NCBI GenBank assembly: GCA_026387175.1
Contig: JAPLME010000006.1
Span: forward strand, 172,078 to 236,077
DNA from: Candidatus Omnitrophota bacterium
Lineage (GTDB): Bacteria > Omnitrophota > Gorgyraeia > 2-01-FULL-45-10
Direction of reading: 5' to 3'
DNA: 64,000 nt
Position 1 is the stretch's first letter. The number at the start of each line of letters is the position of its first letter. Positions 2,622 through 41,759 of the stretch are shown one piece after another. A program made the translations under genes and the position numbers. Below the pieces are notes generated by a model. The model saw nothing but the letters and a program-made list of their open reading frames with translations. It was not told where the DNA came from and ran no database searches.

Positions 2622-2622
2622 A

Positions 2623-3363: not shown

Positions 3364-3366
3364 TGT

Positions 3367-3813
3367 CTATTTCCTCCAGTCATAAGGTATATCATTATCA
3401 TAAGCGTCCATCCTGTATTCATCGGCTTCTTTATGGTTATATGGTATCGTAACATTGTTTATAACAACAGCCTCGATATCGCTTATGCATTTAAATCCAT
3501 GATAAACTTCCTTGGGTATATGGACGAGCATCGGATTTTCGAGGCTGATCTCAAAATCATTTACTTCGCCGAATGTCGGGGAACCTTTTCTGGCGTCATA
3601 GAGCGCGAGGCGCATCTTGCCTGAAATACACGTGAAATTATCGTCCTGCTTCTTATGGAAGTGCCACGCCTTCACCACTCCGGGGAACGCGGTAGTCATA
3701 TAGACCTGCCCGAACTTCTCGAAGATCGGATCATCGCATCTCAATATTTCCATCAGCCGTCCGCGGTCGTCCGGTATAACTTTGAGTTTTTTGACTTTCA
3801 CGCCGTCTATCAT
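3367..3813 (-). CDS. rmlC: dTDP-4-dehydrorhamnose 3,5-epimerase (cupin). The start is moved to the internal Met (MIDGVKV), because the track ORF 3367..3873 would overlap ugd.
   Basis: RmlC-like sequence (HFHKKQDDNFTCISGKMRLALYD...YHGF). The stop of the upstream ugd is at 3815, so a start at 3813 leaves a 1-nt gap. Confidence 0.8.
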   Translation of the reverse strand: MIDGVKVKKLKVIPDDRGRLMEILRCDDPIFEKFGQVYMTTAFPGVVKAWHFHKKQDDNFTCISGKMRLALYDARKGSPTFGEVNDFEISLENPMLVHIPKEVYHGFKCISDIEAVVINNVTIPYNHKEADEYRMDAYDNDIPYDWRK

Positions 3814-3814
3814 A

Positions 3815-8615: not shown

Positions 8616-10039
8616 ACCTTATCCCTCCCATCCGCCTTCGCTTTATAAAGCCTGGCGTCCGCTATCCTTATAAGCTCTTCTTCGGTAACAGCATCTTCCG
8701 GATATGTCGACACACCTATGGAAACCGTGACATTTGCTTCATGCTCCCTTAATGTAAGAGACCTATCCTTTACCTGCTGCCGGATCTTTTCGGCCTTCAA
8801 GTGCGCTTCTTTTTTACCTTTCCTCCACAGGAGCACAGCTATCTCCTCACCGCCGTAACGGCCCGCGACATCCGGATCATCCAGCAGATCGCTTATAGTA
8901 TTAGCTATAAACTTCAGGACAAGGTCTCCGGAGGAATGCCCATATTTGTCGTTGTAATCCTTAAAGTGGTCTATATCCAGGATAAGCAGGGAAAGCTGCT
9001 CTCTCTTTCTGGACGCCCTTCTCACTTCCCTGTGTAAACTGTCGATAAAGAAACGACGCACCTTCAGGCCCGTAAGGCTGTCCTTTATCGCAAGTTCCTG
9101 GGTTCTCGAATATAATATGGAATTTTGTATGGCCACCGCTCCGAGATTCGCTATGATATCGATAAGCCTCAGGTCGTCCTGAATATACGCGAACTCATGC
9201 GGATTATCCATCCTGAGAACGCCTATCACCTTATTCTCGCTTACGAGCGGGGCCGCTATCAGAGAACGGAAAACACCGCGGGCCCCATCAATGCCTTCGG
9301 CGGGAAAACGAAAGTCCTTAGTAACATCCTCTATTATGAGGGGCTTCCTGTATCTTAAGATCCAATGATCGAAGGCATCCCCTTTCTTCGCTTTTACGAC
9401 CGGATAATTCTTGCCGCTGGACGCTGAAAGCATCAGCTCCTGTCTCTCCTGGTTCACCAGAAATAAGAGCACCCTCCCGCTCTTCCCCAGAGTCTTCAAT
9501 GTCTTCTCTATTATCATTCCGATTATGCTGTCCAAAGAGAGCACCGCGCTCAGGCTCTCGGTGACATTTTTCAGGGCGGAATACCTGATAAGCTTCTCCT
9601 CTATTACCTTTATCCCTTTATTTTTTTCTTTCACTTCGTTTGCCAGGATATTCATCTCTTCTCTGGAGCTTTCCGATCTCAAAACATATAACTGGTCCAG
9701 CCTGTTTCTGGAGCTTGCGAAGAGATAACCTATCCAGGCGGTCGCGAAGAACGTCAAGGCGTAAGCATTGTAACCATGATAGCGCATCCGAAAAGCCAGC
9801 AATAAGACAAATAGGCAGGAAGATATGGTCAGAGAAACCCCGCCCGTCATTCCGAATCCTATCCAGGCGCACAATATGGCGATATTGAAACTGGAGATGG
9901 CGGTAGCGGTCAGGGTTATATGAAGCGGAGAGATATCCAGCGGCCTTGAAGATAATATCCAGCAGAAATAAACTGATATAAAAAATGAGATTACGGATAA
10001 GGCGGAAAAGATCGATCTGGCGCGGGAAGATATCATCAT
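8603..10039 (-). CDS. Membrane-anchored GAF-GGDEF diguanylate cyclase
   Basis: 478 aa with a multi-TM N-terminus, a GAF-like middle region and a C-terminal GGDEF domain (RYGGEEIAVLL). It overlaps the upstream cyclase by 13 nt. Confidence 0.8.
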   Translation of the reverse strand: MMISSRARSIFSALSVISFFISVYFCWILSSRPLDISPLHITLTATAISSFNIAILCAWIGFGMTGGVSLTISSCLFVLLLAFRMRYHGYNAYALTFFATAWIGYLFASSRNRLDQLYVLRSESSREEMNILANEVKEKNKGIKVIEEKLIRYSALKNVTESLSAVLSLDSIIGMIIEKTLKTLGKSGRVLLFLVNQERQELMLSASSGKNYPVVKAKKGDAFDHWILRYRKPLIIEDVTKDFRFPAEGIDGARGVFRSLIAAPLVSENKVIGVLRMDNPHEFAYIQDDLRLIDIIANLGAVAIQNSILYSRTQELAIKDSLTGLKVRRFFIDSLHREVRRASRKREQLSLLILDIDHFKDYNDKYGHSSGDLVLKFIANTISDLLDDPDVAGRYGGEEIAVLLWRKGKKEAHLKAEKIRQQVKDRSLTLREHEANVTVSIGVSTYPEDAVTEEELIRIADARLYKAKADGRDKVCSG

Positions 10040-28931: not shown

Positions 28932-30071
28932 CTAATTAGACTTTCTGAATTTATCCTTCAGTCTTTCAATGCGCCGGGATGATTCTACGATCCCCTTCCG
29001 TGGTATCTCTCCACTCTTGACGGCCTTAAGAATTATATCTCTCGCTCTATAAGGAGCCATCTCGTCGTATGCGCTTCCATTGTTGGAGATGATCAATAGG
29101 TCGCACCCCGCGTTAACGGCCCTGATCACGGCTTCCTTGAAACCATAGCGCTCCGTGATCGCGCCCATCTGCATATCGTCCGATACGACGACGCCTTTGA
29201 AACCCAGTTTTTTTCTGAGTATCTCCGTTATATAATGCCCTGAAAGAGTCGCCGGATACTCAGAGTCTATCTTCTTATTTATAATATGGGCCGTCATAAC
29301 CATGTCGACTGCTCCGTCTTTAATAAGTTCTTTATATGGAATAAGCTCTCTGTCCTGATACGTTTCCGAAACATCCACCAATCCTTTATGGCTATCGGCT
29401 TTTGAGCTTCCATGCCCGGGGAAATGCTTGATCGCGGTCATGATCCCGTATTTATGCTGTCCCTCTATAAAGGCCCTGGCTTGCCCGGAAACTATTCTTT
29501 CATCGAATGAAAAAGAGCGCCCTAGCGCCCCGATGACGGGATTCTCAGGGTTTACGTTAACATCAACGACCGGGGCAAAGTTCACATTGAACCCAAGCTC
29601 CGAAAGCTCTCCGGCAAGCGACGTAGACGCTTTCACGGTCTCATTCAAATCATTTTTCTCCCCAAGCTCCCGGGCGCTTGGAACCGTGATAAAACCGTAT
29701 TCTGGTTTCAGGCGATTTACGCGCCCGCCCTCGGCATCGACGGCAACCATCAAAGGCGTCGAAGAGGATTTCTTGAGACCGTTTATAAGCTCTTTTACCT
29801 GAGAGGTGCTAATAATGTTCCTGGGGAAGCTTTTCGTCGGGCCATCGATATCAAACAGGATGACTCCGCCCAGGTTCAGGTTTTTAATAGCCTTTACGAT
29901 ATAAGAATTTTCATTCGCCTCGGTTCCGCGGAAACCGATGATAAGCATCTGCCCTATTCGCACCTTAAGATCTTCGTCTGTATATTTTTTCGTATTAAAA
30001 AAATAAGAGGCGATAAAGATAGATGTTAATAAAGCAATTAAACCGAAAAAATATGAAAACCTTGAATTCAC
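28932..30071 (-). CDS. Beta-N-acetylhexosaminidase, GH3 family (NagZ-like), N-terminally membrane-anchored
   Basis: GH3 motifs (KHFPGHG...D, VVSDDMQM) and an N-terminal hydrophobic anchor. Confidence 0.8.
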   Translation of the reverse strand: MNSRFSYFFGLIALLTSIFIASYFFNTKKYTDEDLKVRIGQMLIIGFRGTEANENSYIVKAIKNLNLGGVILFDIDGPTKSFPRNIISTSQVKELINGLKKSSSTPLMVAVDAEGGRVNRLKPEYGFITVPSARELGEKNDLNETVKASTSLAGELSELGFNVNFAPVVDVNVNPENPVIGALGRSFSFDERIVSGQARAFIEGQHKYGIMTAIKHFPGHGSSKADSHKGLVDVSETYQDRELIPYKELIKDGAVDMVMTAHIINKKIDSEYPATLSGHYITEILRKKLGFKGVVVSDDMQMGAITERYGFKEAVIRAVNAGCDLLIISNNGSAYDEMAPYRARDIILKAVKSGEIPRKGIVESSRRIERLKDKFRKSN

Positions 30072-30104: not shown

Positions 30105-31835
30105 TTAACGCAGTATCGCGAAATTGAGCAGCGTCCCGATAACGATACTGGTAAATATCATAATTAAAGTCGATTTGATGAGGTCCTTGAATCCCAATTC
30201 TTTCCATATGACCACGAATGTGGCGATACATGGAAAAGAGACCGCTAATAGCGTCGCGCCGATAAACAATTGTTTTGCGGATAGCCCTAACGGCATAAGC
30301 ATTCCGACCGCGACATCTTTTCTTATAAACCCGATGGCTAGAGCAACAACCGCTTCCTTCGGCAATCCGAACAAGCCATGAATTATGGGCGCGGATATCC
30401 TGGTCACAAAATCAAATAATTTGAAATAGATAAGCACGTTTATGAATAAAACTCCCGCCATCACAACCGGCACCGCTTCGATCAAAAAACCTTTGACGCG
30501 AAAATAAAGTTTCTGCATCAGCGTGAGCAGCGGCGGAAACCTGTAAGGAGGAATCTCCAGCAGAAATTCCGGGCTATAGCCTTTCAATGCATGATTTAAA
30601 ATTATTCCCAGTATCAGGACGAGGGAAAATAGCACCAGATACACCCCGGTTACATAAAGCCCTCCAAACTTGCCTAACAATCCGAATATCATCGCCTGTA
30701 AAGGCACGCACGGCACGCCTATAGAAATTATGGTCGCTGCGATGAACCTTTCGCGTTTAGATTCTAAAGCGCGCGTCGCTAAGATGCCCGGCACGTTGCA
30801 GCCAAAACCCAAAAGCACGGGAATTACCGCGAAGCCATGCAGCCCCAGGCGATGCAAAAGATTATCCAATAATATCGCCAGCCTGGGCAAATACCCTATA
30901 TCCTCAAGAAGGCTCAGGATAAAATAAAATGATATGACATACGGAAGGACCATTCCAAATTCGATATAAGGCGCGGTAGTCAAAACTCCCAGGGACTGCT
31001 TAAAATCGATCTTGCCGTTAATTAGATCGCCGATCAATAGATGAAACCAGAACCCTTCCCCCTTCCAGTGAAGAGTCAGCTTTTCCAGGAAAGGCTGAAA
31101 AATATTGAAAAAGATCGGATCGGTTATCTTGTTAATTATCAACTCACCCACAAAACGCACTACTTTGAATGAAGCGTAAACAATTCCTGCCGCCATTACT
31201 AATCCGGTTAATGGGCGGACAGACGCGTCCTCCAGCACCTCCCTTAAGGTGTGATGCCTGTGTTCAAGGCGCTGAACCTCTTCTACGATCCTGCCGATCT
31301 CCGTCCAGCGCTCCTGGTTAATGAACCCGGCCCTTAAAACGGGCGCGGCATGAGCGACCTTCTCGATCAACGATTTTATTCCGGAGCCCGTTACCGCGCA
31401 CGTCGGGATCACTGGAACCTTCAGCAGCTTCTCCAGCTTTTCCGTGTCGATATGAACGCCTCGATGGCCGGCTTCGTCGCACATATTCAGGCAGACGATC
31501 ACCGGAAACCCTTCCACGATCAATTGCAAGGTCAGTAGTAGATTGCGCTCTAAATTGGTAGAATCCAGGATATTGATCACGACGACATCGCTCTTGGGGT
31601 GCTCTTTCAATAAAGATACCGCCACTTCTTCCGCGCTGGAAGTCGGCTCTAACGAGTAGGTTCCCGGCAAATCCACAACCTCGATCTTATCGTCTCCCAA
31701 ATGCATGTATCCCTTGGATATTTCCACGGTTGTGCCGGGATAATTTGAGGAGATCACGTGGACTCCTGTAAGACGCGAAAAGACCACGCTCTTGCCGACG
31801 TTGGGATTGCCTATTAAATAGATCTTTTTTATCAT
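30105..31835 (-). CDS. feoB: Ferrous iron transporter FeoB (short form)
   Basis: N-terminal G domain (GNPNVGKS, DLPG, NMCD) and gate/TM domains. Confidence 0.9.
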   Translation of the reverse strand: MIKKIYLIGNPNVGKSVVFSRLTGVHVISSNYPGTTVEISKGYMHLGDDKIEVVDLPGTYSLEPTSSAEEVAVSLLKEHPKSDVVVINILDSTNLERNLLLTLQLIVEGFPVIVCLNMCDEAGHRGVHIDTEKLEKLLKVPVIPTCAVTGSGIKSLIEKVAHAAPVLRAGFINQERWTEIGRIVEEVQRLEHRHHTLREVLEDASVRPLTGLVMAAGIVYASFKVVRFVGELIINKITDPIFFNIFQPFLEKLTLHWKGEGFWFHLLIGDLINGKIDFKQSLGVLTTAPYIEFGMVLPYVISFYFILSLLEDIGYLPRLAILLDNLLHRLGLHGFAVIPVLLGFGCNVPGILATRALESKRERFIAATIISIGVPCVPLQAMIFGLLGKFGGLYVTGVYLVLFSLVLILGIILNHALKGYSPEFLLEIPPYRFPPLLTLMQKLYFRVKGFLIEAVPVVMAGVLFINVLIYFKLFDFVTRISAPIIHGLFGLPKEAVVALAIGFIRKDVAVGMLMPLGLSAKQLFIGATLLAVSFPCIATFVVIWKELGFKDLIKSTLIMIFTSIVIGTLLNFAILR

Positions 31836-32065
31836 TCGGCCTCGACTATAACTTTTGCCGCTATACTATGGCCTAAAGCCAATATGCTCCTGCCCGTCTT
31901 TATCACTACCGGGCCCCTTAAACCGATATGGCTAAGCTTAATCACTTCTCTCCCTTTATACACACCCATATTCATCAGCTTATTTTGCAGGTTTCCGCCT
32001 CCGGATATCTCCACCACCTTACCTCTGTGGTCCGCCTTAAGCGACAGCAAAGACATTTTCTTCAT
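31832..32065 (-). CDS. feoA: FeoA
   Basis: 77 aa with an SH3-like FeoA (GxxVxIxxL) fold. It overlaps feoB by 4 nt. Confidence 0.8.
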   Translation of the reverse strand: MKKMSLLSLKADHRGKVVEISGGGNLQNKLMNMGVYKGREVIKLSHIGLRGPVVIKTGRSILALGHSIAAKVIVEAE

Positions 32066-32075
32066 ATTTTCTCTT

Positions 32076-32465
32076 TTATTTTATCAAAGACTTGATCTTG
32101 GCGAGAAGGACCTTGGCGTCGAACGGTTTCAGTATGTAGTCTTCCGCGCCGATCTCTCCCGAACTTAGCTTAAGGTGCTCTTCTTCCGGATAATGCGCGG
32201 TAAATAAAATGACCGGTATGCTACGGATAGCCTCATCGGCCTTCAACTCCCTGCACACGTCGCAGCCGTTCTTTCCGGGCATCACAACGTCCAGAAGGAT
32301 GATATCCGGCATTTCGGATTTCGCGGTTTCGATGACATACTTTCCGCTGTTAAGCGTTATGACCTCATACCCGCTTGCCTCAAGCCTCGTCTTTACCAGC
32401 TTCAGGAGATCCCCTTCGTCATCTACGACCAGAATCTTCTTCGATCCGGGATTAACGTTATTCAT
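32076..32465 (-). CDS. Single-domain response regulator (CheY-like receiver)
   Basis: DD pair (VVDDE), phospho-acceptor D (LLDVVMPG), T/S and K (LKPF) motifs. No output domain. Confidence 0.85.
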   Translation of the reverse strand: MNNVNPGSKKILVVDDEGDLLKLVKTRLEASGYEVITLNSGKYVIETAKSEMPDIILLDVVMPGKNGCDVCRELKADEAIRSIPVILFTAHYPEEEHLKLSSGEIGAEDYILKPFDAKVLLAKIKSLIK

Positions 32466-32534
32466 TTTACATCCTCCCGTTTTATGTTCTATTATATTAT
32501 ATCCGCTTGTTTCCGTTTTAACAATTGAAACCCT

Positions 32535-33941
32535 TCAGGCTCGCTTGGCCCTCACATATTGATCGGCCGACCGCTTCCTGCGAAAGAAATCCCATGTTCC
32601 GAGAAGCTTCGATATGCTGATGATCCACCTGTACCAGAAGAACTCTACAAATGACAGCGCCACGAGGTACATAATATACCTTATCTTAAAGAGCCTCTGG
32701 CTCTCCACGAAAGCCAATATGCATAAGAGCGACATGAATGCCTGAGAGAGAAGCATAAGTGAAAAGTACGCGAGGAAGACATTGAATTGCAGCACACCCG
32801 CCAGGGCTCCGAATGCCACGAATGCGAAGCTCAATATTTCGATAAATACGCCGAGGACCTCATAGAGCACAAAATAAGGCAGTGTAATAAACGCGAAGAG
32901 GCCGTATTTAGGATTACATACCATATGCCTGTATTTCCAGATCGTCTCGTTGGTCACCCTTTGCCAACGGTTACGCTGTATAATAAGCGAGCGTATATTG
33001 CTGGGCCCTTCGGTCCAGCCCGAGATATACGGCAGCATGACTATCTTATATCCCTTTTCCTTATTTTTTACCGCATATTCGTGAGCACGGAACGTAAACT
33101 CTATGTCTTCGCATGTAAATTCCGCGGAATACCCGCCCAGCTCATATACTATATCCTTGCGCCACACGCCGAAGCCTCCGGACACTATCGGCATCGCGTT
33201 ATATTTACTCCATGCCAGGCGGTTACCTATAAATGAGCGGATATACTCTATGTTCTGATAGGTTATTATCGGGTTATAAGAGAAACTGCGATCCATGATC
33301 ATGCCGTCTTTTATCTTAAAACCGTTCACCAGGCCGAAATAACTTCCAATGCCTATGATCTTGCCCGGCTCCTTATCGACCTGCGCCATCACCTTAAGAA
33401 GCGCGTTCCGCTCGAGTATCGTATCGGCGTCGACGACGCACACATAGTCATATTTTGCCATATTCAGCCCGGCGTTCGCGGCGCCCGCTTTCTTATTGCC
33501 GGGATCCTTGTCTATAACGGTAATGTTCGGATACATTTCACTCTTTAATATTCTACGAACATTCCCGTCTTTGTAGTGCCTTATATACATGGTGTCGATA
33601 GGGCTAAGCTTAAGTAATTCATTAAGTCTCTCCAGAGTCCTGTCCGTCGAACCATCATTCACGACTATTATCTCGAGTTCGGGATAGTTCAGGCTTATGA
33701 GTGATTTTAATGAATCGATTATCCACTCTTCCTCGTTACGGGCAGGCACGATGATAGATACCGGCAATCTCAGGGTGGACAGGTAAAACAGCGGATAATC
33801 TTCGCCTTCGCCCTGGGATTCCCTCCTCATCCCTTCCAGGGATCCTATCAGAGTGAGAAAGAGATAATAAACTGTGAGGAGCAGGAAGTAGCTAAGCGAG
33901 GCTATGAAAACAATATATATAATTTTTGGACCAAGCGTCAT
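32535..33941 (-). CDS. Processive family-2 glycosyltransferase (PgaC/IcaA/NodC/BcsA-like polysaccharide synthase) with N- and C-terminal TM segments
   Basis: VVNDGSTD, KAGAANAGL, VVDADT, CED and QRNRWQR (QxxRW) motifs, plus four or more C-terminal TM helices. Confidence 0.8.
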   Translation of the reverse strand: MTLGPKIIYIVFIASLSYFLLLTVYYLFLTLIGSLEGMRRESQGEGEDYPLFYLSTLRLPVSIIVPARNEEEWIIDSLKSLISLNYPELEIIVVNDGSTDRTLERLNELLKLSPIDTMYIRHYKDGNVRRILKSEMYPNITVIDKDPGNKKAGAANAGLNMAKYDYVCVVDADTILERNALLKVMAQVDKEPGKIIGIGSYFGLVNGFKIKDGMIMDRSFSYNPIITYQNIEYIRSFIGNRLAWSKYNAMPIVSGGFGVWRKDIVYELGGYSAEFTCEDIEFTFRAHEYAVKNKEKGYKIVMLPYISGWTEGPSNIRSLIIQRNRWQRVTNETIWKYRHMVCNPKYGLFAFITLPYFVLYEVLGVFIEILSFAFVAFGALAGVLQFNVFLAYFSLMLLSQAFMSLLCILAFVESQRLFKIRYIMYLVALSFVEFFWYRWIISISKLLGTWDFFRRKRSADQYVRAKRA

Positions 33942-33944
33942 ATG

Positions 33945-35069
33945 CTATAGTCCGTTGTCTATTTTTGCCAAAATTTTCGCCACCTTTGCCCTTACAGACG
34001 GATCGGCATTTTTAGACGCGCTTTCAAGAGCCATGATAGAATATTTTTTTGGTATGTATTCCCCGCCGGCTATGAATTTCTCTATATCAGGAAGAGAGGC
34101 TTTTATATGTTCCGCCATTACATCCTTTACCGCGTCGAGGACCGACCATGACGCGTCGTTTATCAGCTTTATCACTTCCGGCACGGCATCGTCACCGATG
34201 GCTTTCGCCAAACCGAATATAGCGTGTCGTTTTACGAGCCAGCTGTCGTCTTTCAGCCGCTTTCTGAGCGCGACCTTCACGCCCTCTCCTCCTATCCTGC
34301 CCAGGCAATCACAGGCGCCGGCGCGCACCTCGGCAACCTCATCCCCGGTAAGCTTTTCCAGTTTTGCAATATGCTGGCGGGAAGCGAGTTTCGAAAGAAT
34401 AGTGACCCCGCATATCCGGATCCTCGGATCTTTATCATCGGTTAATTTAACAGCCTCATCCGCTATCTCTTTTGGAAAATTGCCGAGTATCGAGGCTATC
34501 TTGTAACCATTGGAAGGCTTCTTCCGCAAAAATCCCAAAAGGGCTTTCGCAGACCTCATCGTCTTTATCTGCGCCAAAGAGATCATAGCGAAATACGCTA
34601 TATCCTCATCACGACTTGAGAGCGACTCACTAAGAACGTCTATTGCCGTTTCTGCCTCCGAATAACCGAGACACAGCATGGCCTCTATCCTGTGCCATTT
34701 ATCATTTGACCTTTCGACGATCTTATTTAATTCGGCGATCTTTTCGGGTTCCCGGAAACAGCCTTTTAACAGCTGCTGTTCGGAGTCATTGAAGAATGCC
34801 GCATCGATGCTCCTATTCGTCTCTATATCTATAAATTGCTGCGGAGTGATGCCGGTAAAAAGCGGGTGACGTACACCCTCGGTAAAGGATTTCCCGGATA
34901 GGACCATTTCGTAGATATCATTCTTTATCTTTAACAACCCCTGGCGGCGTTTTTCCCAGATATAATTTTTAATGACCGCGCAAAAAAATATAACGGCGCT
35001 CGTTAATATGAGAGCGCCGAATAATACCTTATTGATCACCCAGACTATATCGGCATGGTAGTTAAACAT
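33945..35069 (-). CDS. Membrane-anchored HEAT / PBS-lyase repeat protein
   Basis: An N-terminal TM helix, then about 7 HEAT-like repeats (PRIRICGVTIL..., AEVRAGACDCLGRIG, WLVKRHAIFGLA...). Confidence 0.7.
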   Translation of the reverse strand: MFNYHADIVWVINKVLFGALILTSAVIFFCAVIKNYIWEKRRQGLLKIKNDIYEMVLSGKSFTEGVRHPLFTGITPQQFIDIETNRSIDAAFFNDSEQQLLKGCFREPEKIAELNKIVERSNDKWHRIEAMLCLGYSEAETAIDVLSESLSSRDEDIAYFAMISLAQIKTMRSAKALLGFLRKKPSNGYKIASILGNFPKEIADEAVKLTDDKDPRIRICGVTILSKLASRQHIAKLEKLTGDEVAEVRAGACDCLGRIGGEGVKVALRKRLKDDSWLVKRHAIFGLAKAIGDDAVPEVIKLINDASWSVLDAVKDVMAEHIKASLPDIEKFIAGGEYIPKKYSIMALESASKNADPSVRAKVAKILAKIDNGL

Positions 35070-35939
35070 TTAGAATTTGGCCGATGCGGCGAAATTCACG
35101 CTCCGCTTTATGAACTTGGGTTCTTCGGTACCGTAAGAGTAGCCGAATCTTAAATTTATCCCTTTGTATAACTTTATATTTACGCCGGTAAATAATATAT
35201 AACCGAATTCATCGCCGGCATCGAGACCATTTATATCGTAGAGCCTCCCGCCTACAGCCGCTCCGCAGTTCCAGCGCAAAAATTCCGTAATGGCGAAATC
35301 TCCCTTGAATACCCCGATATTAGCCGTATCATGGGCCTCCATATAGCTGGCGCCGTAATTTGCGCTGATGTAGCTGTCTCCGAAATAGTATATAAGGCCG
35401 GGAACCACCAGGTGGGTATCGTCGCCCCTGTAAGCGCGGTAGGTATAACTTATCTGGGCGAACAGGTCCTTATAAATCTTATGGCCGTATTCCGCGATGG
35501 TCTGCCATTGGTATATAAAGTGGCAATCCCATCCATAACCCATCTCAATATGCACGTATTGGTCCGTGAAATTCAGATATGCCCCTACATTCGCTGTCTG
35601 GTCTTTTACGTCAAATCGTTCCAGCTCCGAGAACGACGCGTACCCTGTGATATTTTTATGCGTGTATCCGAAGGTCTGAATGAGCTCGTTCCAGTGGCCG
35701 GTTCTCGTCCCCTGAAGTATATCGCTTGGTTCATAGAAAGCGTCCAGGTACCAACGGTCCTTTTCCGCCGCTTTTTCTTCCATCACGACAAGCGGAGGAG
35801 TGATCTTTTGCACCAATCTATCGATAGATGCCTGTTCAGCGGCACAGGAAAAGACAGGCGTTATTATCAAAAATACCGCCAATGCTATCTTCTTCCTGGA
35901 AAAAATTATTTTAGCGGTGTTTCCCTTTGAATTTTTCAT
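35070..35939 (-). CDS. Outer-membrane beta-barrel protein (YaiO-like), C-terminal Phe
   Basis: Signal peptide, alternating aromatic/Gly-rich strands and a terminal ...ASAKF. It is adjacent to the HEAT protein with no gap. Confidence 0.6.
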   Translation of the reverse strand: MKNSKGNTAKIIFSRKKIALAVFLIITPVFSCAAEQASIDRLVQKITPPLVVMEEKAAEKDRWYLDAFYEPSDILQGTRTGHWNELIQTFGYTHKNITGYASFSELERFDVKDQTANVGAYLNFTDQYVHIEMGYGWDCHFIYQWQTIAEYGHKIYKDLFAQISYTYRAYRGDDTHLVVPGLIYYFGDSYISANYGASYMEAHDTANIGVFKGDFAITEFLRWNCGAAVGGRLYDINGLDAGDEFGYILFTGVNIKLYKGINLRFGYSYGTEEPKFIKRSVNFAASAKF

Positions 35940-36303
35940 ATATTTCTATAGCTGCGGTTATATTCTTTACTTCTCTGCCAAGGTCCTGGGTTTTGACGAT
36001 AAACCCCGAGGCATTGAGCTTACTTGCAGTCTTCACTTTTTCTTCATTAGAAAAAGCCGTGATAATGAATACCGGCAGTTTCGCGTCCTTTGAGCGCACC
36101 TCTTTCAGGACGCTGAGGCCGTCGATCTCCGGCATCATTATATCCAATAGGATGGCATCGGGCTTATCCTTTTCCACCCGCTCGATAGCAGCCTTTCCGT
36201 TATTGGCGGTTATCACCTCGTAACCGTTCGCTTCGAGCCTCATCTGCATCAGCTCGACGAACTCGGCCTCATCATCAACTATCAATATCACTCTCTTTGC
36301 CAT
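35911..36303 (-). CDS. Single-domain response regulator (CheY-like), paralog of the gene at 36919
   Basis: Receiver motifs plus a shared C-terminal LNASGFIVKT motif. Confidence 0.85.
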   Translation of the reverse strand: MAKRVILIVDDEAEFVELMQMRLEANGYEVITANNGKAAIERVEKDKPDAILLDIMMPEIDGLSVLKEVRSKDAKLPVFIITAFSNEEKVKTASKLNASGFIVKTQDLGREVKNITAAIEIYEKFKGKHR

Positions 36304-36322: not shown

Positions 36323-36886
36323 TTATCTGGCTAAAACCCTGTAAATACCGTTAAGCCCGAATAGGATAAATATGGAAGCCGATATCCATTTAACGGACTT
36401 TTCCGGTATATGCTTACGCATCACTATACCGACGATGATCCCTATGGCATCCGCTACGACCATACCGAGAGTAGTCCCCATAAGGACGTTAAACATATTC
36501 CGGTATTCCACAGCCAGGCTTATGGTGGCAAGCTGTGTCTTGTCTCCCATCTCGGCGAGGAAGAACGCGATACCCACTGTCGCCACCGGGCCGAACCGGG
36601 ACTCCTTCTTATTCTTAAGATTGAGTTTATCGCCGTGAAGGGTCCATATCCCGAAAGCTATAAAAGAGAGCGCCGCTATAAAAGAGATAATATCCATCGG
36701 CACTATAGTGGTCAGGAAATGGCCCGTCGCAACCGCAAGCGCATGGTTAAGGATAGTGGCAAGGAAAACCGCTATAAGCACTTTATAAGCGCTGTATCTG
36801 GCCGCGAACGCCATCGCCAAAAGCTGGGTCTTATCCCCCATCTCCGCCAGGACCACAAATATGAACGACGCGATAAACGCCTGCAT
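36323..36886 (-). CDS. UPF0016 / Gdt1 / TMEM165-family cation (Ca2+/Mn2+) transporter
   Basis: Two E-x-G-D-K-T-Q motifs (EMGDKTQ, twice). Confidence 0.8.
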   Translation of the reverse strand: MQAFIASFIFVVLAEMGDKTQLLAMAFAARYSAYKVLIAVFLATILNHALAVATGHFLTTIVPMDIISFIAALSFIAFGIWTLHGDKLNLKNKKESRFGPVATVGIAFFLAEMGDKTQLATISLAVEYRNMFNVLMGTTLGMVVADAIGIIVGIVMRKHIPEKSVKWISASIFILFGLNGIYRVLAR

Positions 36887-36918: not shown

Positions 36919-37305
36919 CTATCCCTTGAACTTATCCGCAAGCCTTATAGCGCTGGTTATGTTATCGATCTCTTTCTGGAGGTCTTCCGTCTTAGCGATG
37001 AAACCCGAAGCGTTAAGCTTGTTGGCAAGGGCAAAGCGTTTGGCGCTGGAGAATGCCGTAATCATGAATACCGGCAGGTTCTTATCTTTTTTCCTGATAT
37101 CCTTTAGTATATCGAGGCCGTTTATATCGGGCAGCATTATATCTAAAAGGACTGCGTCGATCTTATAGTGTTTGAGCTTCTCCATAGCCTCTTCTCCATT
37201 TACCGCAGTGACGACCTCGTAATTATTCGCTTCCAGCCTGACCCTTATCATCTTTAAAAATTCAAGCTCATCATCCACTACCAGTATGGCCTTCTTCTTA
37301 TCCAT
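36919..37305 (-). CDS. Single-domain response regulator (CheY-like). The start is trimmed to MDKKKAILVVDD.
   Basis: Receiver motifs, and about 60% identity to the receiver at 35911. Confidence 0.8.
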   Translation of the reverse strand: MDKKKAILVVDDELEFLKMIRVRLEANNYEVVTAVNGEEAMEKLKHYKIDAVLLDIMLPDINGLDILKDIRKKDKNLPVFMITAFSSAKRFALANKLNASGFIAKTEDLQKEIDNITSAIRLADKFKG

Positions 37306-38467
37306 GGCAGCCCCTTTCTTGCTTAGCCTTAACATATTTTGGCAACGCAAAGATAACTTCCGTCCCTTTGCCCAGCCTGCTCTCGACCCGTATATTACCG
37401 CCCTGCATATCTACAAATTTTTTCGCTATCAATAGCCCCAGCCCGGTGCCTTTTTCCCTGGTAACGATATTGCCATGCCCAAACTGCTGGAACTTCCCAA
37501 AGATCTTAGGCAGGTTCTCGTCGGCTATGCCGATGCCGCTGTCTGAAACCGAACATTCGAAGCCCTCCTTAAGCTCTTTGGCCGATACTTTTATGAAACC
37601 GTTATTGGTAAATTTGATCGCGTTATCTATAAGGTTGGTCATGACCTGTGTCATCATATCTTTGTCCGCATATATCTTTATTTCGCTTTCCGGCAGGTCC
37701 ATCTTCGCCTCAAGGCCCTTTTCTCTCATCCTGGGCCCAAACGACAATAAAACATTTTTCATCAGGGCCGCGATATCCATCACCTCTTTTTTTATCGCCG
37801 TCTTATCGGATTCTATTTTAGAGAGATCCAGGAGATTATTTAATATCCTCTTAAGCCTTTCTATGCTATCCTTGGCGCTTATCAAAATCTTGGCCTGTTG
37901 ATCGTTTATTTTGCCGGGGATCTCATCCAGGATAATATTTATACCTTCCCTGATGATGGAAAGCGGCGTGCGCAGTTCGTGCGATACCATATCGATGAAG
38001 TCATCCTTAAGCTCGTTGAACTTCTTATACTTGCTTATATCGCGGTAAACGCTCAGAAACATCTCCCGGCCCATATGATGTATCAGCGACGTAGAGATAA
38101 GAAGCGTCTTTACCGTCCCGTCTTTTGCGGTTATGGTCGATTCGGCCTCATATATTCTGCCCTTTTTTGCAACCTCGCCCAGCCTCTCGAAAGCCTTACG
38201 TCTCTCGTCGGCACCCGGATGAAGCAGGCTCAAGAAATCTTTTTGGGCATTGGCCTCCTCCATCTTATACCCTGTGATCTCCTCTATCTTTGAATTGAAT
38301 ATAACAAAATGGCCTTTCGAGTCGCTTAAAGTTATACCTTCATCGATACGTTCGATCACCGTAGAGAGTTCTATTACAGCTTCTTCCAGCCTCTCCTTTA
38401 TATAAGATTTTCTTCCTAGTCGCTCTTCTCCGGCATGATGCTGCCGAGGCTTTCTGGTGTCCGGCAT
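37298..38467 (-). CDS. Soluble PAS sensor histidine kinase
   Basis: PAS domain, HisKA (HELRTPLSII) and HATPase_c (N, G1 DSGIGI, G2 GTGLGL). No TM segment. Confidence 0.85.
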   Translation of the reverse strand: MPDTRKPRQHHAGEERLGRKSYIKERLEEAVIELSTVIERIDEGITLSDSKGHFVIFNSKIEEITGYKMEEANAQKDFLSLLHPGADERRKAFERLGEVAKKGRIYEAESTITAKDGTVKTLLISTSLIHHMGREMFLSVYRDISKYKKFNELKDDFIDMVSHELRTPLSIIREGINIILDEIPGKINDQQAKILISAKDSIERLKRILNNLLDLSKIESDKTAIKKEVMDIAALMKNVLLSFGPRMREKGLEAKMDLPESEIKIYADKDMMTQVMTNLIDNAIKFTNNGFIKVSAKELKEGFECSVSDSGIGIADENLPKIFGKFQQFGHGNIVTREKGTGLGLLIAKKFVDMQGGNIRVESRLGKGTEVIFALPKYVKAKQERGCHG

Positions 38468-38862: not shown

Positions 38863-40420
38863 TTTGTCGCATTCCTCCTTTTTTTTGCTTTTTTTCTACA
38901 ATAGAATGATTTTTTATAAACGGAAGGTAAAGAGTGGCTATTGTCCCTTTGCCCGGCGAGCTTGAGAGATCCATTTTACCGTTATGAAGATTTATTATCT
39001 GTTTACAGACAGGCAGGCCCAAGCCTGTACCGTTGGCTTTCGTGCTATGAAAAGGCTCATAAATATGGCCAAGCACCTCGGGCCTTATCCCGGGGCCGTC
39101 ATCTTTAAATACGATCTTAAGCTGACCGCTTCTATGCGCCGATGCAGATACCGCTATGCCACCCGTCTTATTTTTAAATGACTCGTATGAGTTATTCAAT
39201 ATATTATTGAATACCTCCTGCATCTGTACGGGATCCGCTTTTAGCATCAGATCATGCGGACATTTGAATATTTTGCGTATGGTGACATCATAACCGGGAA
39301 ATATCGACTGCGCGAAATCAATGCATTCATTCAACAGGTCGCACACTTTTACGTTCTCATGTATCGGTGATTTTATGCTCGAATAAATGAGCAAATTCTT
39401 TATTATCTGGTCTGATTCCAGCACCTTTATCTCTATATTGCGGATATTGCTGTTAAGCTGAGGATCCCTGCTCTTCATCCTGATATTATAGGCCGCTATG
39501 CCTATAGCCGCCAGCGGGCTTCGAAGCTCGTGCGCGATAGTGGCGGCGATAGTACCTATATCGGCCAGTCTGCTGGCCCTGTCGAGCCTCTGCTGGGCGA
39601 CTAAAAGTTTTTGACTGCTCATCCTGACCAGGTTCTCAAGCTCCTCCTTATCCCTCTCCAGCACTTCCTCTGCCCGTCTATGGCTGGTCATGTCACGGGA
39701 TATACCCATTACATGCAAAACTTTGCCTTTATTATCGGTCATAGGGCTGAAGCGGGTATCCAGCCAGAACTTACTGCCGTGAAATTCGAATTCGCCAAAA
39801 GCGAAGACCGACTTACCGGTTCTGAAAACTTTTCCTATATCCCTCGTCAGGCGTGACGCTGTTTTGGGCGGAAATAGGCCGGGAAGGTGTTTGCCTATCA
39901 TCTCGCGCGGCTTCTTATTGAAATATGCCGCGCCGAAGGTATTTATATAAGTGATGATTTCCGCTTTATCTACCACGTATATGGGGTCTTCGGCCATCTC
40001 GGTAAGAGCCCTGTAACGCTCTTCGCTTCTGCGCAGCGCCTCATCGATGCGCTTACGCTCCGAAATATCTATGTTGACTTCGGCGACGAGCCATTCACCT
40101 TTCTCATTCTTGAACGGTACCGTCACAACCTCTATCGGCCTGTTACCCTCTTTGACGAGCGCCTCTTCGGTCACAATCTTCTTCTTTGTCTTGAACGCCT
40201 CTCTGACGCCGCACAGCGGACATCTCTTTTTTCGGCCCATGAAGTAAGAGTAACATTTTTTGCCGGTGGGGTCTCCCAACGTCTTCTGCCAGTAGGGGTC
40301 GATATATACTATATTGAGCTTCGAATCGATCACATCGAGGCCTATCCTCGCGGCCCCAAGGACAAGCTCGATCTGCTTCAGCAGGTTTAAGCTATCGATC
40401 TTCAATATATTATTCTTCAT
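38855..40420 (-). CDS. Soluble dual-PAS sensor histidine kinase with an N-terminal Cys-x-x-Cys-containing PAS
   Basis: Two PAS domains, HisKA (HELRSPLAAI) and HATPase_c (DDGPGI, GTGLGL). The first PAS contains CPLCGV. Confidence 0.85.
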   Translation of the reverse strand: MKNNILKIDSLNLLKQIELVLGAARIGLDVIDSKLNIVYIDPYWQKTLGDPTGKKCYSYFMGRKKRCPLCGVREAFKTKKKIVTEEALVKEGNRPIEVVTVPFKNEKGEWLVAEVNIDISERKRIDEALRRSEERYRALTEMAEDPIYVVDKAEIITYINTFGAAYFNKKPREMIGKHLPGLFPPKTASRLTRDIGKVFRTGKSVFAFGEFEFHGSKFWLDTRFSPMTDNKGKVLHVMGISRDMTSHRRAEEVLERDKEELENLVRMSSQKLLVAQQRLDRASRLADIGTIAATIAHELRSPLAAIGIAAYNIRMKSRDPQLNSNIRNIEIKVLESDQIIKNLLIYSSIKSPIHENVKVCDLLNECIDFAQSIFPGYDVTIRKIFKCPHDLMLKADPVQMQEVFNNILNNSYESFKNKTGGIAVSASAHRSGQLKIVFKDDGPGIRPEVLGHIYEPFHSTKANGTGLGLPVCKQIINLHNGKMDLSSSPGKGTIATLYLPFIKNHSIVEKKQKKGGMRQND

Positions 40421-41759
40421 CTGATGCGCCTATCTTGCCGGTGGAAATGGCCGCTATAATGGCCGCGCCGTAACCCGAACCGTCTTTAGTCAACGTAATC
40501 TTTATCTTTCCGGATGAGCGTCCGGACAGCTCCCCGATAACTTCTTTTATCTTCTCGGAGAATCCGGGAAGCTTTTCATATACACTGCCGTCTATAGCGA
40601 TGGTATGTTTCCTTATCACATGCGGATCTATCTTAGTAACTACCGCAACTATTGCCGCGGCGCTGATACGCGCGGCCCTTGTAGAGATAAGCTCGCAGGC
40701 CCTTCTCACGACCTTTAAGTCTTCGAAGGACGGATCTTTAACACCCAATCTTCGCAGCAGAACTTTGGTATCGGCCAAATCGGAAGTTCTGTCTGCCAGA
40801 ACCTGCGACACAAATTCTCCCTTGAGTAACATCTTTTTATTAAACCCGGCCGGGGCCGCGCCTTCAAACAAGATCTTTTTAGATATGAGGCCCTTTATTA
40901 TAAGCCTGCACACTTCACCCAGATACATCCCGGAGACCATCTTCTCCAGCATCTGCGCGCGGGGGTTATCCGATTCTTTATCTAATTGCTCATCATAGCG
41001 CGTTGCTTTCAGTTTATTAAAATTACCCCACTCAATATTGATTATCATGGTGCCCGAATTTCGGCATCCGCCTCCCAGCTTCTTTATCTTATGGAGGGCT
41101 TCGACATAGCAGGCATTTGTGCCCGTTCCTATTATGACGCCGACATCGCAATCTCTGTCACTGTAGCTCCTGGCCACAAGCGTGCCCACAGTGTCGTTGG
41201 TAAGCGCCCTTACCGATATATTGCCGATGCCCTCTTCCTCAAAAGACTTTTTAAGCAGCGCCACGACATCGCGGCCTTCGACTCCGCTTGCGCCGAAACC
41301 TTTGGTCCATGTGACAAGCGTACCACTGTCTATACCGGTCTGCCTAACCGGAAAAGAAAATGTAAATCCAAGATCTATATGCTGTAACGGGCTGATCCTG
41401 TTTTCTTCAATAAATTTTTTAACCGACCTTGCGAGGAACCCGAAGAGTTTTTTCCCAGTGGAGGTTATATCTTTATTTCTAAGCTTAAATTTCATTACAT
41501 GATGGCCGGAGGAAATACCGCGGCCTTTAAGCGTCAAGCTCACGATTCTGAAGTTCGTGCCGCCGAGATCCAGGGCGATGTATTTACCTTTTTCTTTACC
41601 GGTGGGTTTATCGGCGTAAGTGGGGATCATCTTCAGGGAACTGAAGCGCTCTGATAGGCCTTTATCCATTTCGAGATGAAAATCCTTGATCATATCTCTC
41701 ATCTCTTCCCCGGATAACTCAAAATCTTTCTCGAGGATCTTTATCGCGCTTAAGCTCAT
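40410..41759 (-). CDS. Hexokinase-family sugar kinase (eukaryotic-type, PF00349/PF03727)
   Basis: Phosphate-1 motif LDLGGTNFR, sugar-binding motifs, a C-terminal IDGS...GSGYGAAIIAA and an adenosine motif. Confidence 0.75.
   Translation of the reverse strand: MSLSAIKILEKDFELSGEEMRDMIKDFHLEMDKGLSERFSSLKMIPTYADKPTGKEKGKYIALDLGGTNFRIVSLTLKGRGISSGHHVMKFKLRNKDITSTGKKLFGFLARSVKKFIEENRISPLQHIDLGFTFSFPVRQTGIDSGTLVTWTKGFGASGVEGRDVVALLKKSFEEEGIGNISVRALTNDTVGTLVARSYSDRDCDVGVIIGTGTNACYVEALHKIKKLGGGCRNSGTMIINIEWGNFNKLKATRYDEQLDKESDNPRAQMLEKMVSGMYLGEVCRLIIKGLISKKILFEGAAPAGFNKKMLLKGEFVSQVLADRTSDLADTKVLLRRLGVKDPSFEDLKVVRRACELISTRAARISAAAIVAVVTKIDPHVIRKHTIAIDGSVYEKLPGFSEKIKEVIGELSGRSSGKIKITLTKDGSGYGAAIIAAISTGKIGASDEE

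Follow-up and report, generated by a model that had tools for sequence, protein, structure and literature searches.

A conserved four-gene cassette of uncultured Omnitrophota that may represent a scaffold-less, receiver-linked variant of synthase-dependent glycan secretion

Gene layout and conservation of the cassette

The window, a stretch of 64,000 nucleotides from a Candidatus Omnitrophota MAG, carries on its minus strand five ORFs for a receiver (REC), an outer-membrane barrel (OMP), a HEAT-repeat protein, a GT2 synthase and a second receiver (Table 1). All five were present where a sequence-only reading had placed them. The gaps of 0 nt between the OMP and HEAT genes and 3 nt between the HEAT and GT2 genes bear out its description of three abutting genes, with a single-pass HEAT protein upstream of the GT2 and, ahead of that, a 289-aa signal-peptide barrel ending in Phe. 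The REC and OMP ORFs share a 29-nt overlap.

Table 1. Genes of the cassette and its surroundings (positions in the window)
Feature	Position	Strand	Length	Remarks
PAS-HisKA-HATPase histidine kinase	38467..37298	-		Pfam
Paralogue of cassette receiver	37350..36919	-		directly downstream of kinase
GDT1 transporter gene	36886..36323			between receiver paralogue and cassette; not conserved
Cassette receiver (REC)	36303..35911	-	130 aa	
OMP (beta-barrel, signal peptide)	35939..35070	-	289 aa	C-terminus ...SAKF
HEAT-repeat protein, single-pass	35069..33945	-	374 aa	
GT2 synthase, PgaC/hyaluronan-synthase-like	33941..32535	-	468 aa	
Downstream stand-alone receiver	32465..32076	-	129 aa	
feoA	32065..31832	-		after downstream receiver
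feoB	31835..30105	-		after feoA

The arrangement was compared with 24 other distinct loci, whose flanks are otherwise unrelated and among which gene order and strand are kept. Wherever it could be tested (22/22 loci), the GT2 gene lies directly downstream of the HEAT gene. The barrel occurs in 21/21 loci, and a receiver of the same subfamily (48–75% identity) stands immediately upstream of the OMP gene, or between the OMP and HEAT genes, in 18 of the 21 loci where this could be determined. For every core protein, between dozens and more than 100 clusters of homologues were found, at identities of 37–72% (HEAT), 48–92% (OMP) and 58–94% (GT2), which indicates that these ORFs are real genes and did not arise by chance. 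The HEAT family comprises about 75 or more clusters at 50% identity, and its named members are all from Omnitrophota.

REC-OMP-HEAT-GT2 is one conserved four-gene unit in uncultured Omnitrophota. The co-occurrence in other genomes that had been proposed as a check is therefore seen, and the earlier notion of a conserved functional module holds, although the actual unit has four genes instead of three. Receivers had also been described as flanking both ends; the upstream one is conserved, but the downstream one (Response_reg, 90 bits), which has its own 69-nt intergenic region, is generic: it is 35–44% identical to a large number of unrelated receivers, and none of the other loci has a specific orthologue in its place. 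The feoAB genes that follow are unrelated context; across the 24 loci neither they nor the downstream receiver are conserved with the cassette. The recurring neighbours are PAS-histidine kinase orthologues, NDP-sugar SDR genes, often fused to a receiver (the fused form in 11 loci), and YvcK-like genes (6 loci).

The putative synthase and the outer-membrane barrel

The GT2 matches Pfam Glycos_transf_2 (93 bits), and its best NCBIfam match is PgaC_IcaA, where a score of 108 bits lies far under the 422-bit equivalog cutoff. It shares 23% identity with E. coli PgaC over 387 aa (E 3e-19) and 26% with E. coli YaiP in the GT domain. The motifs VVNDGSTD, KAGAAN, VVDADT, CED and QRNRWQR are all in the translation and are invariant or nearly so in 21–24 orthologues. 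An N-terminal TM is followed by a cytoplasmic GT-A domain with the D / DxD / (C)ED / QRxRW residues and a family-specific insertion of about 24 aa; the C-terminal part has 3–4 TM or interface helices with invariant E361 and E368. The only full-length PDB match is class I hyaluronan synthase (HAS; 7sp7/8snc), to which the profile aligned over positions 60–398, a span that takes in the GT domain and reaches the membrane region. The sequence thus lacks none of the hallmarks of a processive synthase embedded in the membrane, in agreement with the initial PgaC/NodC/BcsA-type assignment. These features indicate an integral-membrane GT-A enzyme with the motifs and C-terminal helix bundle of polymerising and translocating synthases of the PgaC, class I HAS, NodC and BcsA type.

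The OMP has a Sec signal peptide with A-x-A cleavage, is not a lipoprotein and ends in K-F. In its mature form of about 255 residues, a conserved periplasmic N-terminal segment of ~28 aa (ITPP motif) precedes a barrel that is compact and 14-stranded in the structural model, which points to a Sec-exported, BAM-type protein. The model does not correspond to a 16-stranded porin of the PgaA/BcsC/PelB type. Comparison with YaiO and PgaA, also proposed earlier, gave a divided result: the YaiO matches are partial and barely over threshold (Pfam 27.9 versus 23.9 bits; TIGR04390 34.5 versus 32 bits), while HMM searches and structural comparison did not place the protein in the EPS porin families. No similarity to E. 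coli YaiO itself was detected, either pairwise or by hhalign, and we regard the OMP as a distant, only borderline member of the YaiO family by its sequence. The model is structurally nearer to CymA/OmpG/FadL-type channels than to PgaA/BcsC/PelB porins, but the 14-stranded sugar channels CymA and OmpG are uptake channels and share only 8–11% sequence identity with it.

Length-limited (NodC) and lipid-directed (GT21) transferases share the QxxRW motif. The GT2 could, in a similar way, make a glycolipid or a short oligosaccharide, an amphiphilic product that the barrel would insert or export in the manner of FadL or CymA; the weak matches of the GT2 to Glyco_transf_21 and NodC would fit this, as would a cassette with no TPR scaffold and no deacetylase, lyase or hydrolase to modify a polymer. 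We consider this unlikely. The FadL likeness is explained by strand number, and the OMP has no hatch domain and is well short of the >400 residues of FadL. Furthermore, the best affinities of the GT2 are to the polymer synthases PgaC and HAS, with a match that reaches the membrane channel region, and the invariant polar and aromatic residues of its C-terminal helices fit a glycan channel. Synthesis and export of a sugar polymer is the most likely function of the cassette.

The HEAT protein, the receivers and possible control of the synthase

The HEAT protein (Pfam HEAT_2, 101 bits) begins with a conserved stretch of 12 aa (MxNYHxDIVW) that is predicted to be periplasmic, followed by one TM (about 13–33), a basic stalk helix that ends at residue 57, a conserved segment without HEAT repeats (58–135) and a HEAT/PBS-type alpha-solenoid that extends to residue 373 and is predicted to be cytoplasmic. 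The TM is flanked by 0–1 K/R on its N-side and 3–6 K/R on its C-side in 37/37 homologues, which by the positive-inside rule places the solenoid in the cytoplasm. The helix has no signal-peptide n-region, and the AF2 model (pLDDT 89.6) shows one continuous helix from residue 6 to 57 and not a cleavable signal. In two variants (P0365 and P0367), a lipobox signal peptide and a linker stand ahead of the same TM, so that the solenoid is forced into the cytoplasm. Foldseek matched the model only to generic alphaRep/ARM/importin protein-binding scaffolds and to no enzyme fold. The protein is predicted to be anchored in the inner membrane by a single N-out/C-in helix, and it is probably a regulator or partner of the synthase inside the cell.

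The cassette receiver (Response_reg, 99 bits) is CheY-like and stands alone; Pfam detected no DNA-binding output domain in it. It belongs to a dedicated subfamily that is marked by the signature 'TAFSNEER...NASGFIxKT' and has a conserved alpha4-beta5-alpha5 face. The full set of phospho-acceptor and switch residues (DD10-11, D54, T82, F101, K104) is there, which suggests that it can be phosphorylated. A candidate cognate kinase is the PAS-HisKA-HATPase protein of the window; the receiver paralogue next to it shares 57% identity and the TAFS...NASGFIxKT signature with the cassette receiver, and orthologues of the kinase (170–341 bits) occur just upstream of the cassette in six other loci (L001, L015, L016, L018, L021 and L022). 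This linkage to a dedicated receiver subfamily and to a PAS-histidine kinase, in six loci and the window, backs the earlier proposal of control by phosphorylation. The Halobacterium HEAT_PBS protein OE2401F works with CheY at the archaellum switch (PMC2666748). The parallel, a HEAT_PBS-type solenoid that forms a complex with a CheY-like receiver and serves as adaptor, is an analogy only, as OE2401F has no membrane anchor and its target is a motility switch instead of a glycan synthase.

Input by c-di-GMP is possible, as the window also encodes two GGDEF cyclases, 22–25 kb from the cassette. The HEAT protein could then be a PgaD-like co-subunit, with a non-canonical binding site on HEAT/GT2 (or REC) and a transcriptional or indirect role for the receiver. 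PgaC-PgaD itself binds c-di-GMP without a recognisable domain, and the three most divergent loci (L025–L027) retain OMP-HEAT-GT2 in the absence of an adjacent receiver, which indicates that the HEAT protein has a role independent of a neighbouring REC gene. On the other hand, no PilZ, GIL, MshEN or PelD-type domain was found in the cassette proteins at E<=0.01 (Pfam, NCBIfam), as had been read from the sequence for PilZ, GIL and PelD, nor was an I-site-type domain found. In none of the 24 loci is a GGDEF gene linked to the cassette, in contrast to genes for REC, REC-fused SDR and HK, and a receiver with no DNA-binding output speaks against a transcriptional role. We therefore regard c-di-GMP control as doubtful and somewhat less plausible than a glycolipid or oligosaccharide product.

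Proposed export route and mechanism, and closest known systems

The OMP, a candidate glycan exit channel, could also be a nutrient channel or general porin, co-transcribed with the glycan genes but outside their pathway, in which case the polymer would stay periplasmic or cell-associated. Such a role would be in line with its position outside the EPS porin families and with YaiO itself being uncharacterised, but it is improbable: the OMP gene keeps its place without exception, its junctions being 0-nt or overlapping in 21/21 loci although HEAT identity among the genome-scan loci is only 28–63%; a crude alternation analysis concentrates the conserved residues of the barrel on its predicted lumen face; and in E. 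coli, too, yaiO shares a cluster with a GT2 gene. The sequence-only suggestion that the HEAT solenoid replaces the periplasmic TPR scaffold and guides the polymer from synthase to porin, which would suit its single N-terminal hydrophobic helix, its superficial likeness to TPR scaffolds and the lack of any other periplasmic component in the cassettes compared, is very improbable, since the predicted cytoplasmic location described above leaves it unable to do so.

For the favoured reading, a polymer-secreting cassette under receiver control, we infer the following product, export route and HEAT/receiver mechanism. The GT2 would polymerise a UDP-sugar and pass the chain through the inner membrane. 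A HexNAc or a derivative would be the most likely sugar, in view of the resemblance of the GT2 to PgaC, HAS and NodC and of the YvcK-like and LegB/UXS-like SDR genes that lie next to the cassette in relatives. The HEAT TM may pack against the synthase in the manner of PgaD or IcaD, and the cytoplasmic solenoid may act as an adaptor for the phosphorylated receiver or another signal, switching the synthase on or off, a role that PilZ- or PgaD-type sensing of c-di-GMP has elsewhere. The YaiO-like barrel would let the chain out with no TPR scaffold involved; the N-terminal periplasmic peptide of the barrel could serve as a mobile plug, as in CymA, or contact the inner-membrane complex.

The E. coli PgaABCD system for poly-beta-1,6-GlcNAc is similar in being synthase-dependent, with an inner-membrane GT2 bearing D/DxD/ED/QxxRW, an adjacently encoded membrane-anchored partner and a dedicated outer-membrane beta-barrel. 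It differs in that the Omnitrophota GT2 falls under the PgaC equivalog cutoff, its partner is, instead of the small 2-TM PgaD, a cytoplasmic HEAT solenoid of 374 aa, a PgaB deacetylase is absent, the 14-stranded barrel has no TPR domain whereas PgaA is a 16-stranded TPR-porin, and the linked regulator is a CheY-like receiver and not c-di-GMP. The uncharacterised E. coli yaiS-yaiP-yaiX-yaiO cluster also encodes a YaiO-family barrel with a membrane GT2, but it includes a PIG-L deacetylase (yaiS) and an acyltransferase (yaiX) and has no HEAT protein or receiver, and the Omnitrophota barrel resembles YaiO only at the level of a partial HMM match. Class I HAS of Chlorella virus (PDB 7sp6-7spa, 8snc-8sne), the only solved structure that aligns from GT-A through QxxRW into the membrane helices, polymerises and translocates in a single polypeptide; the relationship is remote (E about 1e-8 to 4e-11), HAS works without a co-subunit or porin, and the substrate of the Omnitrophota GT2 cannot be read from that of HAS. 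As with BcsA-PilZ, Alg44 and PelD, a cytoplasmic sensor attached to the synthase would be expected to gate polymerisation post-translationally, but here the candidate sensor is a phosphorylatable receiver with a HEAT adaptor instead of a PilZ, GIL or PelD protein. Bcs, Alg and Pel all have TPR scaffolds and 16–18-stranded porins, unlike the Omnitrophota cassette.

Overall, we put at roughly 55% the probability that the cassette is an undescribed, phosphorelay/receiver-linked and scaffold-less four-gene variant of synthase-dependent glycan secretion, which, as far as organism names go, is confined to Omnitrophota.

A recurring four-gene block and its neighbours

The ORF list of the window bore out five co-directional genes, with all the glycosyltransferase motifs quoted in the sequence-only reading of this DNA, at the coordinates in the table. 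Four of them form the cassette of receiver (REC), outer-membrane protein (OMP), HEAT-repeat protein and glycosyltransferase 2 synthase (GT2); the fifth encodes a downstream receiver, RECdn. The REC and OMP reading frames overlap by 29 nt, and the gaps are 0 nt between OMP and HEAT and 3 nt between HEAT and GT2. An Rfam scan of the window found no RNA family and no riboswitch close to the cassette, and the matches in promoter and terminator consensus scans lay inside coding sequence, in counts only modestly above those of shuffled controls. The minus strand holds nearly all of the longest ORFs, plus-strand ORFs being mostly nested in those, and the GC skew is negative in 32/32 bins over 64 kb, an unusually long co-directional stretch.

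Coordinates of the cassette and of other features in the window
Feature	Coordinates	Strand	Length, matches and position
Sugar-nucleotide set	703-5110		RmlD-like, RmlB-like (GDP_Man_Dehyd/Epimerase), RmlA-like nucleotidyl transferase, UDP-glucose/GDP-mannose dehydrogenase
ORF beside the GGDEF pair	5164-7317		717 aa; no Pfam match
Two tandem GGDEF diguanylate cyclases	7332-10039		one is GAF-GGDEF
Glyco_hydro_3 (glycoside hydrolase family 3) protein	28932-30071		N-terminal hydrophobic segment; directly downstream of feoB
Downstream receiver RECdn	32465..32076	minus	129 aa; Response_reg; then feoA, feoB
GT2	33941..32535	minus	468 aa; Glycos_transf_2 and related GT2 models
HEAT protein	35069..33945	minus	374 aa; HEAT_2 101 bits (Pfam)
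OMP, signal-peptide protein	35939..35070	minus	289 aa; C-terminus SAKF
Cassette receiver	36303..35911	minus	130 aa; Response_reg (Pfam)
Receiver paralogue	37350..36919	minus	after kinase; 57% identity to cassette receiver, signature in common
PAS-HisKA-HATPase kinase	38467..37298
Hexokinase-family protein	40410-41759		Hexokinase_1 and Hexokinase_2; directly upstream of two PAS-kinase/receiver pairs

The window's HEAT protein has a 100% identical counterpart annotated from a Candidatus Omnitrophica/Omnitrophota MAG. Around HEAT homologues of 37-53% identity, the REC-YaiO-HEAT-GT2 block recurs in otherwise unrelated context. A scan of species-representative genomes yielded 22 further loci; all loci were scored by phmmer with the window proteins, and the conservation counts refer to 24 distinct loci, the window left out. 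GT2 lies directly 3' of HEAT in 22/22 loci having downstream sequence, and the barrel gene was found in 21/21 loci with at least 0.9 kb upstream, in 20 of them directly upstream of HEAT; in one locus, L003, the receiver is placed between the two. Of the 21 determinable loci, 18 have a receiver orthologue; it is absent only from the three most divergent (L025-L027), which keep HEAT with no receiver adjacent. The triad picked out in the sequence-only reading thus co-occurs in other genomes, and the four cassette genes very probably constitute one functional unit.

The GT2 family comprises at least 120 clusters at 58% identity or more, the OMP search gave 181 matches, with orthologues called 'YaiO family' by PGAP, and an exhaustive HMMER search gave about 75 or more full-length HEAT representatives at 50% clustering. 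Every family member with an organism name belongs to Omnitrophota. Unverified labels of other kinds (Ratteibacteria; TPA MAGs named 'uncultured Planctomycetia/Planctomycetales/Clostridia') are attached to a few genome records, those of L007, L011, L020, L025 and L026; unless such labels are imprecise, the cassette is slightly wider than Omnitrophota. Neither HEAT-GT2 nor REC-HEAT fusions occurred among the 150 best HMMER representatives, the longer matches there being giant multi-HEAT proteins that match in the repeat region only.

Several genes recur beside the cassette. An orthologue of an extended-SDR enzyme of the NDP-sugar dehydratase/decarboxylase type flanks it in 11 loci, carrying a fused N-terminal receiver domain in 7 of these 11; it is closest to LegB, UXS and RmlB, with all scores below the equivalog cutoffs. 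A YvcK/CofD-related protein accompanies the cassette in 6 loci; its score with TIGR01826, the model for 'UDP-GlcNAc-binding protein YvcK', is 295 bits, and by eye its N-terminus looks receiver-like. The receiver-fused SDR and the YvcK-like gene adjoin the cassette in L001 (3056-5766) and also in L007, L009, L011, L015 and L020. Taken together, these two neighbours point to a phosphorelay that may control not only the synthase but also the supply of sugar nucleotides. The window holds no close orthologue of the cassette-linked SDR, its sole candidate being an RmlB-like gene 30 kb off; the sugar-nucleotide set that includes RmlB-, RmlD- and RmlA-like genes, at least 27 kb from the cassette, is a possible supplier of precursors.

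In 6 loci, an orthologue of the PAS-HisKA-HATPase kinase is encoded shortly upstream of the cassette. In the window, the receiver paralogue that follows this kinase is separated from the cassette by a GDT1 transporter gene, which is not conserved. Second receivers of the same 'TAFSNEER' subfamily occur near the cassette in L015 (10714-11097, downstream of GT2) and L022 (5324-5722, further upstream), paralleling the window paralogue. The hexokinase-family protein encoded upstream of the kinase/receiver pairs belongs to a family that is mainly eukaryotic.

The sequence-only reading had the block bracketed by receivers and followed by feoAB. These genes are present in the window, but RECdn and feoAB recur in no other locus, and feoAB was rejected as a module member on that ground. 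RECdn was likewise rejected, both as a member and as what is left of the REC-SDR fusion that occupies the same position in L019 and L022, as it has no specific orthology; its identity to many receivers is only 35-44%, which marks it as generic.

The synthase and the outer-membrane barrel

When 21-24 orthologues were aligned with PgaC and YaiP, the nucleotide-binding aspartates of GT2 (NDGSTD; D96/D100), D171xD173, C277-E278-D279 and Q322-R323-x-R325-W326 proved invariant. The family differs from PgaC and YaiP in a conserved insertion of about 24 residues past the STD motif. One hydrophobic helix precedes the catalytic domain and 3-4 follow it at the C-terminus (segments at about residues 346-446), where Glu361 and Glu368 are invariant. 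Among PDB structures, class I hyaluronan synthase (HAS) alone aligned over the GT domain and on into the membrane region, where the profile alignment extends to residue 412. The sequence features of processive membrane-embedded GT2 enzymes of the BcsA/PgaC/HAS/NodC/chitin synthase type, namely GT-A motifs and helices after QxxRW, are therefore present, and by its invariant motifs, C-terminal helices and HAS alignment GT2 qualifies, on sequence, as a polymerising membrane-embedded synthase.

The best NCBIfam model was PgaC_IcaA (TIGR03937) at 108.5 bits, far below the 422.3-bit cutoff for the PgaC/IcaA PNAG synthase equivalog. GT2 shares 23% identity with E. coli PgaC over 387 residues (E 3e-19) and 26% with YaiP across the GT domain, and its match to NfrB was not significant (BLAST E 0.21). 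To judge from these comparisons, GT2 is an orthologue of no characterised synthase. We consider it probable that GT2 makes a polymer, and we infer, as a reasonable supposition only, a HexNAc-type substrate, because of the affinities to PgaC, HAS and NodC and the YvcK-like and LegB-like neighbours. We also considered, as less likely, a glycolipid or oligosaccharide product handled by a FadL/CymA-like barrel.

In the OMP alignment, a Sec signal peptide cleaved at A-x-A leads into about 28 conserved periplasmic residues (…ITPP…), and the K-F terminus is conserved. A lipoprotein assignment from an FSC motif was rejected because its cysteine, noticed by eye, is not conserved in the alignment; the A-x-A site is. 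AF2 modelled the protein (pLDDT 81.5) as a compact barrel of 14 strands, with loops mostly of 2-5 residues, and in a crude in/out alternation analysis the side predicted to face the lumen carried most of the invariant residues (Tyr, His, Glu, Arg, Gly). The mature protein, about 255 aa, consists of the barrel only, and no periplasmic TPR scaffold is fused to it or partners it.

The family assignment of the barrel, a point raised in the sequence-only reading, came out in part. OMP scored just over the YaiO thresholds (PF19413, 27.9 vs 23.9 bits; TIGR04390, 34.5 vs 32 bits), with about half of each model covered. Direct similarity to E. coli YaiO was not found, BLASTP giving nothing significant and hhalign of the family profile a probability of 0.2%. 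OMP is thus a borderline, distant member of the YaiO family, and since pairwise and profile similarity to E. coli YaiO is lacking, membership rests on the curated HMMs. In E. coli K-12 (L006, 380069-384616), yaiO clusters with yaiS (PIG-L deacetylase), yaiP (GT2) and yaiX (an IS2-split acyltransferase), which supports a general association of YaiO with GT2. This cryptic cluster, with its deacetylase, GT2, acyltransferase and barrel, looks like an inactivated glycan locus. No functional description of YaiO or YaiP was found in the searchable literature, in which YaiO appears almost solely as a PCR marker or in lists of outer-membrane proteins. We slightly favour the barrel as the exit channel; the alternative that we considered, an OMP with no part in export, would have to accommodate its presence in every locus with enough upstream sequence.

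The receiver and the HEAT-repeat protein

The acidic pocket (D10, D11), phospho-acceptor D54, T82, aromatic switch F101 and K104 are conserved in 19 receiver orthologues, which also have in common the signature TAFSNEER…A…NASGFIxKT. This signature spans the alpha4-beta5-alpha5 surface, through which CheY-like receivers contact their targets. According to Pfam, the cassette receiver has no output domain. Since genes for a kinase, a HEAT scaffold and a membrane synthase are tightly linked to it, post-translational control through protein-protein contact is the most economical reading. There is a precedent in Halobacterium, in which a HEAT_PBS protein works with CheY (PMC2666748).

The absence of a PilZ, GIL or PelD-like receptor, claimed from sequence, held up: Pfam and NCBIfam at E<=0.01 gave no PilZ, PelD-GGDEF I-site, GIL or MshEN receptor in or beside the synthase. 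The two GGDEF cyclases in the window show that the organism uses c-di-GMP, and they speak for an alternative that we considered but hold to be improbable, a cryptic c-di-GMP control with HEAT as an analogue of PgaD. Because of these cyclases, and because L025-L027 lack the adjacent receiver, a switch from receiver through HEAT to synthase is something that we infer; that the receiver/HEAT pair acts in this way has, in our estimate, an even chance.

The tandem HEAT repeats were confirmed by the HEAT_2 match and by the AF2 model (pLDDT 89.6), which has a continuous helix at residues 6-57 and a solenoid at 76-373. Foldseek of the model against the PDB returned generic protein-binding repeats only (alphaRep, armadillo, importin-alpha; alphaRep/ARM E 3.5e-8). 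Across 37 aligned homologues, the sole hydrophobic helix lies at about residues 13-33; in 37/37 the stretch of about 12 residues ahead of it is acidic or neutral and has 0-1 Lys/Arg, and the stretch after it has 3-6 Lys/Arg. By the positive-inside rule, the helix is predicted to be an N-out/C-in signal anchor. In two family members, P0365 and P0367, this helix and its basic cluster come after a signal peptide of lipoprotein type (…FLGC, …FIGC) and a linker some 65 residues long, an arrangement compatible with N-out/C-in topology only. The charge pattern and these two proteins therefore place the solenoid with high confidence in the cytoplasm, where the GT-A domain and the receiver also lie. 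In P0365 (512 aa) and P0367 (502 aa), the periplasmic linker of about 65 aa is Pro/Glu/Ser-rich; tethered by N-terminal lipid and transmembrane helix, these proteins might bridge towards the outer membrane.

The sequence-only reading had the HEAT solenoid replace the periplasmic TPR scaffold, a role impossible for a cytoplasmic solenoid; with two independent lines, flanking charges and the lipobox proteins, against it, that model has almost no standing left. Cytoplasmic placement was named there, jointly with homology to an unrelated enzyme family, as speaking against the proposal. Such homology was not found: no lyase or other enzyme equivalog matched (NblB, 36.7 vs 300 bits), so membership among HEAT/PBS-lyase-type solenoids implies no enzyme assignment. 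The non-HEAT segment 58-135 is strongly conserved, with N85, F92, F93, N94, E97 and F105 invariant, and is a candidate interaction surface.

Relation to known secretion systems

To our knowledge, post-translational activation by c-di-GMP, a periplasmic TPR scaffold and a 16-18-stranded porin are common to all well-studied synthase-dependent exopolysaccharide systems of Gram-negative bacteria (cellulose, PNAG, alginate, Pel, Nfr). Of the components of the Pga system, the PgaD-type partner, the PgaB deacetylase and the TPR-porin PgaA are absent from the cassette. Unlike Bcs, Alg, Pel and Nfr, it lacks a c-di-GMP receptor at the synthase, and in place of the periplasmic TPR scaffold that these systems and Pga possess it has a barrel-only OMP and a cytoplasmic HEAT solenoid. 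We place the cassette within synthase-dependent secretion and outside Pga, Bcs, Alg, Pel and Nfr, whose defining accessory features it lacks. The searchable literature yielded no description of this cassette, of Omnitrophota exopolysaccharide, or of HEAT proteins in synthase-dependent systems.

As the best-supported explanation, we propose that the cassette encodes a variant of synthase-dependent glycan secretion that has no scaffold and is linked to a receiver, and we assign the whole chain a probability of about 0.55. GT2 would polymerise and translocate the chain, with the HEAT protein as a membrane-tethered cytoplasmic co-subunit or adaptor; the machine would be switched by its dedicated receiver, fed by the adjacent PAS-kinase, and the product would exit through the YaiO-like 14-stranded barrel. 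A more specific version, which we offer tentatively and hold to be on balance doubtful, is secretion gated by phosphorylation and independent of c-di-GMP. In it, a CheY-like receiver would dock on the membrane-anchored cytoplasmic HEAT solenoid, itself an obligate co-subunit of the synthase, replacing PilZ/PgaD-type sensing, and the glycan would leave scaffold-free through a 14-stranded YaiO-type channel. The YaiO family, and with it the cryptic yaiO-yaiP locus of E. coli, would in that version receive its first function.

If the proposal is true, a conserved system has kept the synthase and exchanged all three accessory principles: control passes to a receiver with a cytoplasmic HEAT adaptor, the scaffold is missing, and the barrel is small, with 14 strands. 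This would show that the three elements are not obligatory. It would represent a direct two-component route to polymer secretion. It would also offer a hypothesis on what the orphan YaiO family does. With only four genes, the cassette should be tractable for heterologous expression. Omnitrophota are an uncultured, often ultra-small, host-associated phylum whose cell-surface biology is almost unknown, and the cassette would identify a surface-glycan machine in them.
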